This document shows, in pieces, positions 8,683 to 15,555 of a stretch of DNA of 64,000 nt. Source of the DNA: an uncultured bacterium (lineage in GTDB: Bacteria; Verrucomicrobiota; Verrucomicrobiia; Verrucomicrobiales; DEV007); the NCBI GenBank assembly GCA_963977015.1, contig CAXBMO010000001.1, positions 384,001 through 448,000 of the forward strand, read 5' to 3'. How positions within the stretch are numbered: the first letter of the stretch is position 1; each line of letters opens with the position of its first letter. The notes beneath the pieces are model-generated. The model saw only the letters and a list, made by a program, of their open reading frames with translations. It was not told where the DNA came from and made no database searches. The position numbers and the translations under genes were made by a program.

Positions 8683-9069
8683 CTAAAGCTGGCCGGAGAG
8701 CCGCTCTTCAATGCATTGAATCAAGACATCAAGATCGACCGGCTTGGCCAGCATGACTTCCTTGTCGCTCTCAACGACTTGTCCGGAGCCGGTGTCCGAC
8801 TTCGAAACCAGGGCGGTCAGCATGATCACCGGAACGGATTTCAGGGCGCGATCGGCTTTCAATTCAGCGAGAACATCACCGCCGTCTTTTCCCGGCATAA
8901 TGACATCGAGGATAATCAGGTGAGGGAGAAACTCTCGTGCCGTTTTAAGTGCATGGATCGATTGGTTTTCGACCATGACTTCATACTTTTCAGTGTCCTC
9001 AAGGTTGAGGCGTACTGCCATGGTTAGGGCAGCATCGTCATCGACGATGAGAATGCGTTTCTTAGTCAT
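8683..9069 (-). CDS. single-domain response regulator (CheY-like)
   Basis: ILIVDDD, LDVIMP, MLTA, KP receiver motifs. Confidence 0.92.
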   Translation of the reverse strand: MTKKRILIVDDDAALTMAVRLNLEDTEKYEVMVENQSIHALKTAREFLPHLIILDVIMPGKDGGDVLAELKADRALKSVPVIMLTALVSKSDTGSGQVVESDKEVMLAKPVDLDVLIQCIEERLSGQL

Positions 9070-9087
9070 AGTTTTAGAGTTGGGGGG

Positions 9088-10341
9088 TTAGGTGACCTTT
9101 GCTAGATGATCTTGAGATGTCACTTTAAAGATGAGGCGAACACGCAGGCCTCTGGGGTTTTCCACATTCTCCATCTGAATCCTCCCTTTATGCTGCTGCA
9201 TGATGCTCTTCACGACGGAGAGCCCGAGTCCGGTGCCTTTTCCGGTCGGCTTGGTGGTAAAGAATGGTTCGTAGACTTGATTGACTTTGTCTGGCGGAAT
9301 TCCCGGGCCGGTGTCGCGAAACTCCACGACCACGATCTCGTCTTTCTGACGCAACCTCTCAAAGTGGCGCGATCCTTCCAGGTGGGGCGAGTGCTCGACT
9401 TCCCCCAGCATCGTCCGAACCCTCAGCTTACCGGCGGGGCCTTCCAGTTCACCCATCGCTTGGGCTGCGTTGGTCGCTAGATTGATCAAGACCTGCTCAA
9501 TCCGGTTCCGATCGATTGCAACCGTCGGGAGATTTTCGAGCAATTCGATCTTTAGCTCCACGTTGTTGCTGATGAACTCGTGACGCACCATTTCGAGTGA
9601 CTTTCGAACGAGTTCATTGAGATCCTCGTTCGCAAATTCGGTTTCCGCCGGACGGGACAAATCCACCATTCCAATCACGATCGTGTTGGCGCGGTCAATC
9701 GCGTCCTTCATCGAATCCAGCATCGACATCGCGGTCTTGTCTTCGCTATCACAGCGACGCTGAAAAAAATCGACCCCCATCTGGAGAATCGCGAGGGGGT
9801 TTTTCACTTCGTGGGCGACGCCTGCTGCCAATCGGCCCAGCGATTCGAGTTTCTCCGATTGGATCAGGTGTCTCTCCGCGTCAGAGAGCCGTTGATTGGC
9901 TGACGCCAGTTTTGAATTCACCGACCGTAACTCGCCTTGGCTGCGTTTCCGCTCTACCGCATGCGTGATCGTACGGAGGAGCAATTCGGGGCGCAGTTCG
10001 TTCTTGGGCAGGAAATCCTGGGCACCGGCTTTGATGAGGCGAATGCCGAGCCCGTTTTCCTCCAGCCCGGTCAACACTGTAATGGCGACGCCAGGGGCTG
10101 CTTGTTGGATTTGAGTCAGGGAGGCGATTCCCTGCGAATCGGGCAGCGCGAGATCGAGGAGAATAATGTCGAAGTCGGGTTCCGTCGGTGAGGAAAGTTT
10201 TGCAATTGCAGAGTCGACGGAAACCGCCTGATGGAGGTCGTAGGCGGGAGCGCCGCTGTCGCGCAAATGTTGCCCAACTAGATGATAGTCCGAGTGATTA
10301 TCCTCGACACAGAGAATTCGGAGAATTGAAGAACGGATCAT
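9088..10341 (-). CDS. cytoplasmic receiver-histidine kinase (REC-HisKA-HATPase)
   Basis: N-terminal REC (VEDN, LDLALPD), H-box AHEVKNPL, NLATNA, DTGPGI, PFFTTK, GTGLGL. No TM segment. Confidence 0.92.
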   Translation of the reverse strand: MIRSSILRILCVEDNHSDYHLVGQHLRDSGAPAYDLHQAVSVDSAIAKLSSPTEPDFDIILLDLALPDSQGIASLTQIQQAAPGVAITVLTGLEENGLGIRLIKAGAQDFLPKNELRPELLLRTITHAVERKRSQGELRSVNSKLASANQRLSDAERHLIQSEKLESLGRLAAGVAHEVKNPLAILQMGVDFFQRRCDSEDKTAMSMLDSMKDAIDRANTIVIGMVDLSRPAETEFANEDLNELVRKSLEMVRHEFISNNVELKIELLENLPTVAIDRNRIEQVLINLATNAAQAMGELEGPAGKLRVRTMLGEVEHSPHLEGSRHFERLRQKDEIVVVEFRDTGPGIPPDKVNQVYEPFFTTKPTGKGTGLGLSVVKSIMQQHKGRIQMENVENPRGLRVRLIFKVTSQDHLAKVT

Positions 10342-10528: not shown

Positions 10529-11803
10529 CTAAGCCATAGCGATCGCCTTGGAATGCGTCTTCATTCCGTATTCGAGATGGCCCGGTAAATCGGCAATTTC
10601 CGCCACCGCCTTGAACAGGGGACCAAACTTATCCTCAAACAGATCGCCAATCAGGCAATCCGTGAGTTCGGGACGCAAATCCGGGTTCGCCTTGATGAGC
10701 TTGCCAAAGGAGAAGTTCTCGTCGTAAAACGCATAAACCAGGGCCCGCATCCGCTCGATTGCAGCACAAGTCTCCGCTCCATAGGCGTGAAACTGAGAAG
10801 CGGAAAAGTCACCCGTATCGAGCGCGGCATCGATGGCGTCAGCCGCCAATTCGCCTGTCTTCATCGCGAGGAAAACACCGCTGGAAAAAACGGGGTCGAG
10901 AAAGGCAAAGGCGTCCCCGGCGAGGAGGAAACCATCTCCAGCGCAAAACTCGGACCGGTAACTGAACTCGCCGGTCGTGCGGTAGTTGCCCTCCTTTTTG
11001 CCGGGAGCGAGGTGTTCCTGAATCCAGACGTTTTCAAGAATCTCGCGGTCCATGATCGCTTCCGGATCCTTGAGGCCGTCGCGATAGAGGTAATCGCGAT
11101 TGGCGACAATTCCGATCGACACGCGATTGTCGCGAAGAGGGATGTACCAGAACCAGCCGCGTTCAGGAATGTAGGCGACGGTGGTCGTGCCTTCATCGAG
11201 GCCCGGGTCGCGCATCGCTCCTTCGTAATAGGTCCAGAGCGCGATTTTATCGAGTTTGGGATCGCGCTTGCGCCATTTCTGCTTCCGGCTGATCAGGGCG
11301 TCACGGCCGGTTGCATCAACGGTCATTTTGCCAAAATGCTCCTTCTCCGTGCCGTCGGGATGGATCGCAATCACTCCTACCACAGTGCCGTTGTCGTCTT
11401 TGATCACGTCTTTGACCTTGGTGCCCTCCAAGGTCTTTGCCCCGTTCTCCTTGGCGGTGCGGTAGATCATGTTGTCGAATTCCGAGCGCTCAACCTGCCA
11501 GGTCGTCGATGACGGATGCTCCTTGTGCTGAAAAAAGTAGAAGGGGCGTGACTGGCGGCCATCGGGCGTCACGAACTGCACACTGTGCTTCTGCACGAAG
11601 CCGATTTCGTCCATCTTCTTTTCCAAACCGAGCCGTTGGAGGGTGTACCAACAAAACGGCATGAGGGATTCACCGACGTGGTAGCGGGGAAACGTCTCTT
11701 TCTCGATGAGGAGAACGTCTCGCCCTTTCTCGGCAAGCAGGGCTGCGGCGGTCGAGCCAGCGGGGCCGGCGCCAATGATGATGGAGTCGTGGGTTTCGGG
11801 CAT
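10529..11803 (-). CDS. flavin-dependent halogenase-like FAD oxidoreductase
   Basis: GAGPAG FAD motif, FPRYHVGESL, GFVQK (position of the catalytic Lys), GWFWYIP (WxWxIP), GDAFAFLDPVFSSG. Start at ATG 11803 (MPETHD). Confidence 0.8.
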   Translation of the reverse strand: MPETHDSIIIGAGPAGSTAAALLAEKGRDVLLIEKETFPRYHVGESLMPFCWYTLQRLGLEKKMDEIGFVQKHSVQFVTPDGRQSRPFYFFQHKEHPSSTTWQVERSEFDNMIYRTAKENGAKTLEGTKVKDVIKDDNGTVVGVIAIHPDGTEKEHFGKMTVDATGRDALISRKQKWRKRDPKLDKIALWTYYEGAMRDPGLDEGTTTVAYIPERGWFWYIPLRDNRVSIGIVANRDYLYRDGLKDPEAIMDREILENVWIQEHLAPGKKEGNYRTTGEFSYRSEFCAGDGFLLAGDAFAFLDPVFSSGVFLAMKTGELAADAIDAALDTGDFSASQFHAYGAETCAAIERMRALVYAFYDENFSFGKLIKANPDLRPELTDCLIGDLFEDKFGPLFKAVAEIADLPGHLEYGMKTHSKAIAMA

Positions 11804-11837
11804 TTTTGGGAGATTACGGGTCGGTGGAGAGGGCGGA

Positions 11838-12413
11838 TCAGTCCAATTTGGGAAGAGCTTCGACAATGTCGGCAAACGCCATGCCGTCGGCAAAACTCAG
11901 TTCGTTGCAGCGACCGTAGAGCGTTGTTCCAACATCTTCGCCCAGGGCATGAGCCATGATTTCGTCGGCCTGGACCCGGAAAAATCCGCGAGGGCGACCA
12001 AAATGCGGCACGTTTTGCTGTTGAAGCACGCCGCCGAGCGGGATGCGGCCTTCTTCGATCAATTCGCGAGCGGGGGAATCGAACATATTGAGGTGAATCG
12101 CAATCGCGCCACATTCGACCGGCATCAGGTTGTCGCGCCTTCGCAAAATCACCACGCGCAGCAGGTAGTCTTCGCTCTGCTCTTTATCGAGCACTTCGAG
12201 TCGCAGTTCGGAACCGTGATAGTGCTCCAGAGTTGGAGTCATGTCACGCTCGTGAACCAGCAACTCGCGATCGATCTCCGGCATATCCTCTCCATCGACG
12301 AAGTCGAGTGGAGGGAGGTCCAGATTGCGACGCTCGTAAAAGTAATGAAGCGGCATCAGCCAATGCAGGGCCAACGCTCCGTCTACCGACGCTGCTTCGC
12401 GGATCTCAGGCAT
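11838..12413 (-). CDS. chorismate pyruvate-lyase-like (UbiC/UTRA-fold) protein
   Basis: LLVHERDMTPTLE, LLRVVIL, IPLG, LYGR and terminal IVEALP follow the UbiC/Rv2949c motif order. ATG 12413 overlaps the upstream stop (ATGCCTGA). Confidence 0.55.
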   Translation of the reverse strand: MPEIREAASVDGALALHWLMPLHYFYERRNLDLPPLDFVDGEDMPEIDRELLVHERDMTPTLEHYHGSELRLEVLDKEQSEDYLLRVVILRRRDNLMPVECGAIAIHLNMFDSPARELIEEGRIPLGGVLQQQNVPHFGRPRGFFRVQADEIMAHALGEDVGTTLYGRCNELSFADGMAFADIVEALPKLD

Positions 12414-13767
12414 AGCGGGCATTGCGATGTTGGGGCAAAAAGAATTCGTGGAGCAGGCGATCGATCTGAAGCAGACCCTCTCGATTGAGTCGGATCTCGT
12501 CACCGTCGATTTCGCCAAATCCTTCCTCAACGATGTAGTTGAGTGGCTTTTCAAAGCGATCACGGGGATCAACGCCGTATTTATCAATGTAATAGGAGGC
12601 CGTGACCTTGCCGAGTTTGAGGCGGAGGATGAACTCGCGCAAGACGCGCTCTTCCGCATTCGTCTGGTAGGCCCGGTAAATCGGCAGCTTCCCGTCATCG
12701 AGCGCCATCATGTAGGGCCCGATGTCGTGATTGTTCTGGTAATGGACTCCGCCGAGATGACCGAAGGAGGCGACGCCCGCACTGAGCAAATCCGCACCTT
12801 CCCAAAGTTTGTCCCGATAGACGAACTTGGTTTTGTCCGGATTTTTGACCACCGTGGTCGCGCTGGTGACGGTGTATCCGGCTTTCTCAAATTCATCGAA
12901 TGCGTAGCTGACCCAACGGCGTTTCGTCGCCCAATCCGCCACGGGGGCGGTGAGCTTCCCGGCCGACTTCATCTCCTTGTAGAGCGTCGTGTTGTAGGGA
13001 ACCTCCATCTGGTAAATCGTGACGCATTCCGGACCGTATTTGATGGATTGCTCGATGCAGTTTTTCCAGTTGTCCTCCGTTTCATCGACCATCCCGGCGA
13101 TCAGATCGATGTTGATTTGGTCGAAATCGAGCGACTGGGCAAACTTGAGCGCGCGGTGAAGCTCGGGAGAACGGTGGGCCCGTCCGTTGAGCTCTAAAAT
13201 GTGGTCGTTGAAGTTTTCGGCGCCCAAGCTCAAACGCGTGATTCCGATTTCGCGCAGCGCTTCGAGCTTTTTCTCGGTCAGCGTTCCCGGTTCGGCCTCA
13301 AACGCGACTTCTTCGGTCTCCTCCCAAGGGAAACACGCCTTCATCCCGTCCGTCAGCTCTTTCAACTGGTTGACGGAGAGATAGCTCGGAGTTCCACCGC
13401 CAAAATAGACAAACTTGGGCTTTCGACCTGCCAGATACGGCTTCTCCGCATAGGTTCGAAACTCTTTCAGACCAGCCTGGAGGTAGCCGTTGATTTCGGC
13501 CGCATTGCGATCGGTATAGACCCGGAAATAGCAGAAATGGCAGCGCTTTCGGCAAAAGGGAATGTGAAAATAAAGACCGAGATCGGTATCGCCCACGGGA
13601 CCGTCGAGCGTTTGGTTGATAATGGGGACCTGATCCTGCTCCCAAAAGCTGAAGGGCGGGTAATTTGCGACGAAGTAATTCCCGGCTTCGGTCTCGTCGC
13701 CGGGTTTTTCGATGGGAATGGAGGAATCGAGGACAGCTTCGGAGATGGAGGAATGTTCAGTGGCCAT
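12406..13767 (-). CDS. HemN-like radical SAM protein (coproporphyrinogen III oxidase family, non-canonical)
   Basis: LYFHIPFCRKRCHFCYF (CxxxCxxC), YFGGGTPS, EAEPGT, RLSLG, NIDLIAG, HemN-like C-terminal domain. Confidence 0.88.
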   Translation of the reverse strand: MATEHSSISEAVLDSSIPIEKPGDETEAGNYFVANYPPFSFWEQDQVPIINQTLDGPVGDTDLGLYFHIPFCRKRCHFCYFRVYTDRNAAEINGYLQAGLKEFRTYAEKPYLAGRKPKFVYFGGGTPSYLSVNQLKELTDGMKACFPWEETEEVAFEAEPGTLTEKKLEALREIGITRLSLGAENFNDHILELNGRAHRSPELHRALKFAQSLDFDQINIDLIAGMVDETEDNWKNCIEQSIKYGPECVTIYQMEVPYNTTLYKEMKSAGKLTAPVADWATKRRWVSYAFDEFEKAGYTVTSATTVVKNPDKTKFVYRDKLWEGADLLSAGVASFGHLGGVHYQNNHDIGPYMMALDDGKLPIYRAYQTNAEERVLREFILRLKLGKVTASYYIDKYGVDPRDRFEKPLNYIVEEGFGEIDGDEIRLNREGLLQIDRLLHEFFLPQHRNARYA

Positions 13768-13851: not shown

Positions 13852-14409
13852 CTAAATGTCCGGAACGGAAGCAACGAGCGTCTCATAGCGTTCAAGGATT
13901 CCCAACTTGCGACACCAATCCGCAATATACTCCCGATTCAATGCCTCCCCCTGCACCGCCATCACATCGCGAGCATCCTCCAAATCCTTGGGCCGCGCCC
14001 AGCGCAGTTTTTGAATGACGACGTCTTCAGCGGTGGGAATGGATACACTGGCATTGAGCTGTGGAACAAAGATCTCTTTCCGACGCTCGAATCGACTTTT
14101 TTGAAAATCATCAGTGGCCAGTTCAAAGAGCTCGATGACAAAAGGGGTGCCAACGATTTTTACAATGTGGCGAACGCTGCCTGTTATGGTTTCGAACGTC
14201 ACTTGACTGTCGAATTTGAAGCAATCAGGTAGATGCGAGGCCACTTCTGCAAGCTGTTTTGAGTGGCGCAACTCGATCACGATATCCACATCTTTGGTGT
14301 TGCGCGGGATGCCGTAAAAATTACTCGAAAGCCCTCCAACGATCATGTGTGGTACTTTCGCTTTGCGAAGCGCCTCCGTCATGTCCACCGCTGATTGCTC
14401 GATGGTCAC
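13852..14409 (-). CDS. nucleotidyltransferase, MenT1-like putative toxin
   Basis: IVGG...PRNTKDVDIV (GG...RxTxDxD), AEDVVIQKL, RPKDLED. GTG start overlaps the upstream stop (GTGA). Confidence 0.75.
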   Translation of the reverse strand: MTIEQSAVDMTEALRKAKVPHMIVGGLSSNFYGIPRNTKDVDIVIELRHSKQLAEVASHLPDCFKFDSQVTFETITGSVRHIVKIVGTPFVIELFELATDDFQKSRFERRKEIFVPQLNASVSIPTAEDVVIQKLRWARPKDLEDARDVMAVQGEALNREYIADWCRKLGILERYETLVASVPDI

Positions 14410-14669
14410 TTCGACTCCATAGGTTCGTAAATTCCCCTTTCCCGAACCATTCGCACTCGGTCAAACCGCGCTTGAACCGCCAATTGAATGGCATTTGGGT
14501 CTTGAGTCCCTAATTCCGAAGCCACTCCTGCCTCCGTGAAAGCCAGCGCAGATTCAAACAACCGGAAACCGTCGAGAAACTTCTCGCAGGGATCCTGTTC
14601 CCGAGCCCGCAACACCTTGTCCCGATAGATTTCGGCAGCGAGGTTGTCGATTTCAGCTTGCGGTTCCAT
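14406..14669 (-). CDS. small helical protein, putative MenA1-like antitoxin
   Basis: 87 aa from ATG 14669, translationally coupled to the nucleotidyltransferase. The EKFLDGFRLFE...AIQLAVQARF pattern resembles Rv0078B-type antitoxins. Confidence 0.6.
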   Translation of the reverse strand: MEPQAEIDNLAAEIYRDKVLRAREQDPCEKFLDGFRLFESALAFTEAGVASELGTQDPNAIQLAVQARFDRVRMVRERGIYEPMESK

Positions 14670-14748
14670 GCGCCAGTCTAGTCGTGGTTCCTCCCCTACG
14701 CAATCCGCGCAGTTGACCCGGTGGAACTTCGCGGGCAGTCTCCGTGGA

Positions 14749-15555
14749 ATGTCTCCTCTTTGCCCCAAACTGTCCATTCGGCTGGAAGTGTTGCCCGGAA
14801 AATCCGTTGCGGAACAAATTCAAAAGGCGGCAGAATATGGATTTCACGCCATCGCTCTTCCGGGGCGCTTTACCGATCGCTGGCTCACGGGATTGCGGGA
14901 ATGCGTTGACGATATCCCGCTTCCCATCGCGAGTCTTTCCCTCGGCTTCGAGCACTCGCTCATCAGCCCAACCGCGGATCAGCGGGCGAAATGCAGGGAC
15001 TCGCTGCTTCGTCTCTTCGATCTCTGCGCCGAGTTTGGGGCAAAACTCTTCAATATGCCGCCCTGCCTGATTCAGGACAATCCGGACCGAATTCAGGATC
15101 CCGGGCAAATCGAGGCGTTGCTGCTGGAGCAACTCCCTGAAATCGCCGACCAAGCCAAACAGCGTGACGTGGCGGTTCTTCTGGAGCCGGTGAACAAGTA
15201 CGAATCGGATACCATGAATTCCGTGATCGAGGCTGCCGCGATCTCGGAACGCTGCAATCATTCGCATCTCGGGATCACGGCCGACTTTTTTCACATGCAA
15301 TTGGAGGAGTTGTATCCCGCAGACGCACTGGAAAAAGCGCTTTCCCAAATTCGCCACATCCACGTTGCCGAGAACACCCGAGTGGAGCCTGGTCCCGGAT
15401 CGCTCGACTTTTATGAGGGGTTTGGCGTGTTGAAGGAGAACGGATACGACGGGATCATCGAGGTCGAATGCCGCTATCTTTCCGGTCCTGCAGACGAGGT
15501 GCTTCCCGTTTCGGCCGCCTTCCTGCAGAATGTGTGGAGAACCGTCGGCTACTAA
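14749..15555 (+). CDS. sugar phosphate isomerase/epimerase (xylose-isomerase-like TIM barrel)
   Basis: LLEPVNKYE, ADFFHM, HIHVAENTR..PG.G, EVE metal ligands. Confidence 0.88.
   Translation: MSPLCPKLSIRLEVLPGKSVAEQIQKAAEYGFHAIALPGRFTDRWLTGLRECVDDIPLPIASLSLGFEHSLISPTADQRAKCRDSLLRLFDLCAEFGAKLFNMPPCLIQDNPDRIQDPGQIEALLLEQLPEIADQAKQRDVAVLLEPVNKYESDTMNSVIEAAAISERCNHSHLGITADFFHMQLEELYPADALEKALSQIRHIHVAENTRVEPGPGSLDFYEGFGVLKENGYDGIIEVECRYLSGPADEVLPVSAAFLQNVWRTVGY

Follow-up and report, generated by a model that had tools for sequence, protein, structure and literature searches.

Three co-oriented genes in a 64,000-nucleotide stretch of DNA from an uncultured bacterium of the Verrucomicrobiales (contig CAXBMO010000001.1, positions 384,001 to 448,000; the whole stretch is called the window here) encode a HemN-like radical S-adenosylmethionine (SAM) enzyme (rSAM), a UbiC-like protein of chorismate-lyase fold and a short halogenase-like flavoprotein. 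This triplet is a fragment of a single-copy system of about 20 genes, which is divided into two modules, A and B (Table 1), and which most of the free-living Verrucomicrobiales searched keep in single copy. Retention of this kind fits a housekeeping cofactor or a component of the envelope, not a patchy secondary metabolite. Judging from the enzyme families, we lean slightly towards a pathway that builds, halogenates and exports an aromatic compound, and we give its steps in outline. This outline builds on the observed gene set with its linkage, co-occurrence and two-module split, and on the folds and motifs of the proteins.

The triplet and the complete cluster

The open reading frame (ORF) of the UbiC-like gene overlaps that of the rSAM gene by 8 nt and is followed by the flavoprotein ORF after a gap of 34 nt; the ORF coordinates of the three co-oriented genes agree with an earlier, sequence-only reading of this DNA. 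The same reading had raised conservation of the triplet as a test, and this was borne out when the best 80 of 535 genome stretches with relatives of the middle gene were compared: rSAM is present in 72 of these 80 loci, the flavoprotein in 41 and both in 40. Thus, the linkage of the triplet exceeds chance. Nearly all of the 80 loci are from Verrucomicrobia, mostly from Verrucomicrobiales. The flavoprotein gene is missing from 39 loci; for 32 of these, the remaining genome was searched, and a flavoprotein orthologue (48-66%) is encoded elsewhere in 30 of them. In two close relatives, inserted genes of unrelated kind separate the UbiC-fold gene from the flavoprotein gene (L001 7624-8421, L006 7660-8325).

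In a genome of the same class but of another order (G001), the cluster is one co-oriented run that includes four pyrroloquinoline quinone (PQQ)-like propellers. Large parts of it are also contiguous in G291, G333, G338 and G158, as well as in seven loci of the 80, and three genomes have a TonB-dependent receptor added to the cluster. In the source genome (G000), the orthologues are scattered over eight contigs (C1, which carries the triplet, C2, C3, C5, C7, C13, C20 and C37), and rSAM, the UbiC-like protein and the flavoprotein each occur once. The other single orthologues are the EhpF-like adenylase (62% identity), the SSS importer (54%), the PaaK-like ligase (48%), the aldehyde dehydrogenase (ALDH)-fold protein (47%) and the iron-dependent alcohol dehydrogenase (Fe-ADH, 47%), as well as the module B thioesterase (44%), GT4 glycosyltransferase (36%) and permease (34%). 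The DUF3311 candidate was assigned solely from its position, and the TonB receptor was not found in this genome at E 1e-10. The sequence-only reading had seen neither a ligase nor a carrier protein next to the triplet, which is correct for the window, but the PaaK-like ligase, the EhpF-like adenylase and other partners are encoded elsewhere in the source genome. The idea of a minimal pathway had to be given up, because the triplet belongs to a system of about 20 genes that has a reductase arm and two enzymes for acid activation. The EhpF-like adenylase matches EhpF (3l2k/3hgu) with E 3e-41, its ALDH-fold partner belongs to PF00171, and the two genes are adjacent in G000, G001, G291 and G338, as expected of a GriC/GriD-type pair.

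The relatives that could be named belong to Verrucomicrobia, Pedosphaera, Limisphaerales, Lentisphaeria and one Actinomycetota bin, while Planctomycetota and Acidobacteriota appear only as the commonest taxa of neighbouring Atlas clusters. A metagenome scan with one distant protein returned five loci, and a search of plasmids at E 1e-60 gave no rSAM match.

Two modules with different distribution

Co-occurrence was determined in 151 genomes of the order, in 301 genomes of the phylum and in a chosen panel of 42 genomes (26 well-assembled positives and 16 negatives). In the order sample, rSAM is found in 101 genomes and EhpF in 103; both are present in 98 and neither in 45, with rSAM alone in three and EhpF alone in five. 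The two genes agree in 143 of 151 genomes, and the eight discordant genomes consist of 110-610 contigs. Neither gene occurs in family f2 (0/36), family f64 (0/4) or genus g151 (0/4). In the phylum sample, orthologues of the UbiC-like protein, rSAM and EhpF are present in the same five of 301 genomes, and in the panel PaaK and ALDH are found in 26/26 positives versus 0/16 negatives. Gain and loss thus affect module A as a whole. The only EhpF relative of G251 is remote (28-29%) and is located in another cluster context (L147, G251:C65), together with genes for a U32 protein, a class III aminotransferase, an MqnA-like protein, a short-chain dehydrogenase/reductase and two CofH/MqnC-type radical SAM enzymes; this cluster is possibly another aromatic pathway.

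GT4 and the permease are encoded in 26/26 panel positives and also in the same five of the 16 negatives, namely the four g151 genomes and G251. Genus g151 further retains the thioesterase, the ABC system and two cluster propellers. It has no orthologue of the flavoprotein or of the SSS importer (for SSS only paralogues with 27-28% identity), and searches of g151 and G251 that had no positive control found neither the small membrane protein nor the 777-aa propeller. With five candidates scored per genome, GT4 is present in 31 of the 301 phylum genomes, including all five with module A; the other 26 lack module A. Because GT4, the permease and further components persist where module A is absent, the system is best described as two modules, with A nested in B. 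The module B GT4 (L086 7259-8563 and orthologues) has a conserved N-terminal CxxC..D pattern in 26 sequences that were picked by that pattern, which is a possible metal or Fe-S site and would be unusual for a GT4 enzyme. Its Atlas neighbours belong to Planctomycetota, Acidobacteriota, Bacteroidota and Hydrogenedentota.

PQQ-like propellers follow module B

The source genome encodes 33-35 PQQ-like propellers, which carry a WxxWRG-type motif at the N terminus. A profile built from 20 of them, with at most 26 candidates scored, matched all 26 GT4-positive, module-A-negative genomes (at least 3-19 matches each) and none of 44 GT4-negative genomes, which were the first in listing order of 270 and lay outside f2. 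The presence or absence of propellers, following GT4, splits inside one genus, and there were no matches in six f2/f64 genomes that lack both modules. This co-occurrence is in part operon linkage, but most propeller copies are encoded elsewhere. In five of 17 module-B-only loci, GT4 is located beside genes for NuoEF-like, GltD/NuoG-like, membrane 4Fe-4S and twin-arginine translocation (TAT)-ferredoxin proteins.

A conserved redox operon is joined to module B in loci L165, L166, L172, L173 and L175, which have no module A. It comprises a TAT ferredoxin, a membrane 4Fe-4S protein, a membrane-anchored propeller, a NuoEF fusion and a GltD/NuoG-like protein.

A proposed pathway and the use of its product

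In the pathway that we favour, the UbiC-fold protein would cleave chorismate to give 4-hydroxybenzoate or a closely similar aryl acid, which the PaaK-like ligase would turn into an aryl-coenzyme A (CoA) thioester in place of the missing carrier protein. The flavoenzyme would then halogenate the ring and rSAM would add a SAM-derived carbon, either as a methyl group or as a NosN-like methylene link. After release of the acid by the hot-dog thioesterase, the EhpF/ALDH pair could reduce it to the aldehyde, as in GriC/GriD, and Fe-ADH could yield the benzyl alcohol, which GT4 may join to a sugar. The ABC system would deliver the product to the periplasm, the site of the propellers, and re-import could proceed via SSS and in some genomes also via the TonB receptor. 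Both the order of these steps and the structure of the end product are conjecture.

Several observations count against this pathway. UTRA ligand-binding domains share the fold of the UbiC-like protein (Z up to 12.7, versus 11.2 for UbiC), and the correspondence with the UbiC residues is based on motif order and not on a structural alignment. The fold of the flavoprotein includes hydroxylases, with QhpG reaching 138 bits, which is below its cut-off. The solved relatives of the ALDH-fold protein are weak (E 2e-13), and its reductive direction is deduced from the EhpF neighbour. The genome counts include related genomes, and since kin are not independent, they overstate the number of events; separate gains and losses are perhaps ten and not hundreds. 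Finally, module B with its thioesterase and GT4 also occurs where module A is absent, so that module A is not necessarily the source of its substrate.

A more specific form of the same explanation, which we regard as possible but rather doubtful, is that the product serves as redox cofactor or ligand of the PQQ-like propellers, with module A making the head group and module B maturing and exporting it. Tentatively, A and B together would make a halogenated, C1-modified hydroxybenzyl glycoside that acts as cofactor or covalent modification of propellers of the Planctomycetes-Verrucomicrobia-Chlamydiae type, which number dozens of copies per genome, while organisms with module B only would either be salvagers or rely on a different head group, and would couple their propellers to NADH-linked electron transfer. 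The strict division of propeller matches between GT4-positive and GT4-negative genomes is consistent with this, and so are the lack of matches where both modules are missing, compared with 15-37 in the source family, the four propellers inside the G001 operon, the redox genes and membrane-anchored propeller beside GT4 in module-B-only loci, and the TonB-dependent receptor in three of the clusters. Against it stands genus g151, which has no orthologues of rSAM, EhpF, PaaK, ALDH, flavoenzyme or SSS and still keeps 24-37 propeller matches, comparable to the 15-36 in those genomes of the family that carry module A. A strict requirement of the propellers for module A was rejected on these grounds, and the SSS importer was rejected as a salvage route of g151 in view of its distant paralogues. 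The absence of module A from most GT4-positive phylum genomes is a further point against a cofactor role, and the propeller profile is closer to BamB-type non-enzymes than to PQQ dehydrogenases.

Somewhat less likely still, module B could be an envelope glycolipid or a protein-glycosylation and trafficking system, with module A only adding an optional aromatic cap or making a secreted small metabolite similar to the p-hydroxybenzoic acid derivatives (pHBAD) or dibromoanisic acid. The combination of GT4 with a LolD-like ATPase and a duplicated FtsX permease would fit such a system, as would the independence of module B from A in many lineages, and a planctomycete is known for halogenated hydroxybenzoate metabolites according to the accessible text of one report (10.1101/723874). 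For a secreted metabolite, however, near-universal single-copy retention across four families after break-up of the operon would be unusual, and the SSS and TonB importers suggest that the cell retrieves the compound. A modified quinone, which the sequence-only reading had considered, was rejected: no prenyltransferase was seen in the annotated cluster copies, and menA (above cut-off) and menC/menE-like genes are located separately on another contig of the source genome.

The halogenase-like flavoprotein

The motifs that the sequence-only reading had named for the flavoprotein were all located: GAGPAG at G11, GFVQK at G68-K72, WFWYIP at W217-P222 and DPVFSSG at D303. K72 is invariant in 14/14 aligned orthologues and aligns with the lysine of 8zop and of 5bul/5bva, which we take to be Bmp2. 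The GFxxK-type lysine is the catalytic lysine of flavin-dependent halogenases. The best solved relatives are the halogenases 8zop, 5bul/5bva, 3e1t, ChlB4, PltA and CmlS, and the twelve best consist of eleven halogenase entries and one unassigned flavoprotein. The protein also carries both of the motifs, GxGxxG and WxWxIP, that are given for halogenases in the available part of (PMC6644159).

Grouping with geranylgeranyl or menaquinone reductases, which had been named as a possible refutation, was rejected: the halogenases score 217-130 bits, compared with 53.5 bits for geranylgeranyl reductase 3oz2, and the reductase models are not reached (135.5 versus a cut-off of 158.8 for TIGR02032; 84 versus 700 for MenJ). 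Thus, the flavoprotein appears to be halogenase-like, of the type acting on thioester-bound rings, with halogenation as a prediction from its sequence. We consider it improbable that the flavoenzyme is a hydroxylase, with a methylated hydroquinone or catechol-type compound without halogen as the product. Models of QhpG, LodB and GoxB cover the whole catalytic region (138, 97 and 89 bits, all below cut-off), but the invariant K72, the retained WxWxIP motif and the halogenases among the best solved relatives speak against this reading.

The chorismate-lyase-fold protein

Neither Pfam nor NCBIfam has a match for the 191-aa protein, and the cut-offs of PF04345 and PF01947 are not reached by the protein or by 120 relatives; in neighbouring Atlas clusters, 11-19% of the members carry PF04345/PF01947. 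The predicted structure (pLDDT 93.5) is best matched by AF1396 (2nwi, DUF98) with Z 15.2 and a root-mean-square deviation of 2.6 over 144 aligned residues, and it also matches UbiC (1fw9; Z 11.2, 3.4 over 142 residues); a Foldseek comparison gave E 7.5e-9. The chorismate-lyase fold claimed for the middle protein thus passed the structural test that had been set beforehand. In 140 diverse relatives, R86, P125, G127 and E185 are invariant and M58 is nearly so, and R86, the PLG motif (P125-L126-G127) and E185 align with AF1396. The ligand residues of UbiC are Met34, Arg76, Leu114 and Glu155 according to the accessible text of (PMC7879144), and M58, R86, L126 and E185 are candidate counterparts in matching order.

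The family comprises 1,755 representatives at E 0.001 (clusters at 50% identity). Natural fusions were sought as longer forms among the 8,000 best candidates, and two UbiC-flavoprotein fusions and one UbiC-thioesterase fusion were found. On the basis of the model, the protein has a chorismate-lyase fold and a predicted UbiC-like function within a family that is separate from UbiC, and it is the probable source of a 4-hydroxybenzoate-type acid. One assembly shows the UbiC-fold gene as two separate ORFs (L070 6893-7627), owing to either a frameshift or a sequencing error.

The radical SAM enzyme

The CxxxCxxC motif of rSAM begins at C72, and the sequence identity across 48 orthologues is 55-87%. 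Its predicted model matches HemN (1olt) with TM 0.79, and NocN is second among its solved relatives. The features of class C enzymes are present, namely CxxxCxxC and the HemN fold with its C-terminal domain (HemN_C), together with GGGTP. In contrast, every NCBIfam cut-off is missed, with scores of 178/400 for HutW (the best), 171/325 for HemN and 158/205 for HemW. rSAM therefore appears to represent an unnamed clade of HemN-like enzymes and is probably a SAM-derived C1 transferase; a second SAM site and methylene-radical chemistry would be in line with its fold and with the class C literature, as far as covered by the available text of (PMC10114718).

It is very improbable, and largely refuted, that rSAM belongs to the usual heme-pathway or menaquinone-methylating enzymes (HemN, HemW, HutW or MenK) and has incidental neighbours: its database label is coproporphyrinogen III oxidase and the source genome has no HemF match, but the enzyme lies under all family cut-offs, lacks the HNxxYW motif of HemW, tracks EhpF and PaaK and not heme or men genes, and is retained alongside a HemF-family gene in G409. 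Although HemF was not found, rSAM is not needed as coproporphyrinogen oxidase, because the source genome encodes HemW in another gene, which passes the cut-off, together with a ChdC-like protein that falls slightly short of its NCBIfam cut-off. The assignment as HemN or HemW was rejected in view of the sub-cut-off scores and the separate HemW.

Genomic surroundings

Table 1. Genes in and around the triplet, with the composition of both modules and the gene order in G001.
Feature	Position in window	Strand	Description
HemN-like rSAM gene	12406..13767	minus	453 aa; PF04055 + PF06969
Chorismate-lyase/DUF98-fold (UbiC-like) gene	11838..12413	minus	191 aa; predicted structure
Short flavin-dependent halogenase-like gene	10529..11803	minus	424 aa; PF04820 111 bits
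Nucleotidyltransferase-like gene with small partner	13852-14409 and 14406-14777	minus	weak DUF6036/AbiEii matches; directly upstream of rSAM
Response regulator-histidine kinase and single-domain response regulator	8683-10341	minus	downstream of triplet
Module A			UbiC-fold, rSAM, flavoenzyme, PaaK-like CoA ligase, EhpF-like adenylase, ALDH-fold partner, Fe-ADH
Module A, further members			SSS importer with DUF3311 partner, small membrane protein, one large propeller
Module B			GT4 glycosyltransferase with N-terminal CxxC, hot-dog thioesterase, PQQ-like periplasmic propellers
Module B, further members			ABC ATPase (LolD-like), 1,100-aa FtsX-type permease
G001 order, part 1			three propellers, DUF3311-like, SSS symporter, EhpF-like adenylase, ALDH-fold protein, Fe-ADH, propeller
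G001 order, part 2 (continuing)			rSAM, UbiC-fold, flavoprotein, GT4, thioesterase, small membrane protein, PaaK-like ligase
G001 order, part 3 (continuing)			ABC ATPase, FtsX permease, 276-aa unknown, TonB-dependent receptor

The G+C fraction of the triplet (0.55-0.56) is the same as that of its surroundings, and an alternative in-frame ATG three codons upstream would extend the UbiC-like protein to 194 aa. The flanking genes of the window are not conserved with the triplet in the 80 loci compared. The nucleotidyltransferase pair, which looks like an inserted toxin-antitoxin-type pair, is present in 0/80 loci, and a two-component pair like the downstream one in only one. A scan for promoters and terminators gave nothing exceeding shuffled sequences. 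Among loci that include L033, L036-L038, L049, L050, L053, L055, L061, L065, L077, L078 and others, a ThuA/F5-8/cytochrome c protein of 1,150-1,390 aa follows the module in 15, and 20 have a divergent DUF3108 gene in front of it; both neighbours may reflect lineage synteny only.

Comparison with known systems

Several established systems share parts of this assembly. The p-hydroxybenzoate derivatives of mycobacteria involve the chorismate lyase Rv2949c, glycosyltransferases and export, and in mycofactocin and PQQ operons the cofactor genes cluster with importers and cofactor-using proteins. Both differ from the cluster described here in their enzyme sets; PF01947 has no match in the source genome, and no precursor peptide was seen. 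PltA, ChlB4, CmlS and 5bul/5bva resemble the flavoprotein in length (about 410-450 aa), lysine, WxWxIP and DPxFSSG, with 5bul aligning over residues 5-390. These halogenases are carrier-dependent, whereas no carrier protein is encoded in any annotated copy of the cluster, and a CoA thioester may stand in for it. Bmp5 is a flavoenzyme of a different type.

As in the baaA/baaB and Bmp6/Bmp5 pairs, a chorismate-lyase-like gene is located beside a flavin halogenase gene, with a halogenated 4-hydroxybenzoate as proposed product. In Planctomycetales strain 10988, baaA/baaB is described in the accessible text as a two-gene pair with an unlinked O-methyltransferase that was not tested genetically (10.1101/723874). 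By that description, in which the word 'radical' does not occur, it differs in lacking rSAM, the CoA ligase, the reductase arm, GT4, the ABC system and the propellers. A close analogy to Bmp5/Bmp6, which the sequence-only reading had cited, is not supported, as the flavoenzymes differ in type, the pair is embedded here in a system of about 20 genes and the baa and bmp pairs have no rSAM.

The EhpF/ALDH pair corresponds to GriC/GriD, a short adenylating enzyme with an ALDH-fold partner that converts an aryl acid to the aldehyde according to the available part of (PMC10179220), and to ehpF/ehpG, named in a phenazine cluster in the available part of (PMC10991766). In all of them, adenylase and ALDH-fold partner are adjacent or nearly so. 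In contrast, the known pairs belong to antibiotic clusters with 3-amino-4-hydroxybenzoate or a phenazine acid as substrate, while the pair described here lies outside the window and accompanies a chorismate lyase, a halogenase, rSAM and Fe-ADH. With the HemN-like C1 transferases NosN, MenK, TbtI and ChuW, listed as class C in the accessible text of (PMC10114718), rSAM shares the HemN fold, CxxxCxxC, GGGTP and the HemN C-terminal domain; it differs in reaching no named-family cut-off and in its tight coupling to a chorismate-lyase-fold gene.

No paper describing the cluster was found by title or abstract start in a literature search whose coverage excludes most subscription journals. PQQ-like propellers are strongly expanded in these bacteria without an assigned function, and their co-occurrence with one GT4/ABC module that nests an aromatic module provides a testable handle on it. 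The cluster also points to a new HemN-like clade that is now mislabelled as coproporphyrinogen oxidase and to a chorismate-lyase-fold family that no Pfam model catches, and the pathway, if true, would give a halogenase a housekeeping-like role. Thus, the parts are known kinds of enzymes in an undescribed, housekeeping-like assembly, which would be categorically new if its product is a propeller cofactor.

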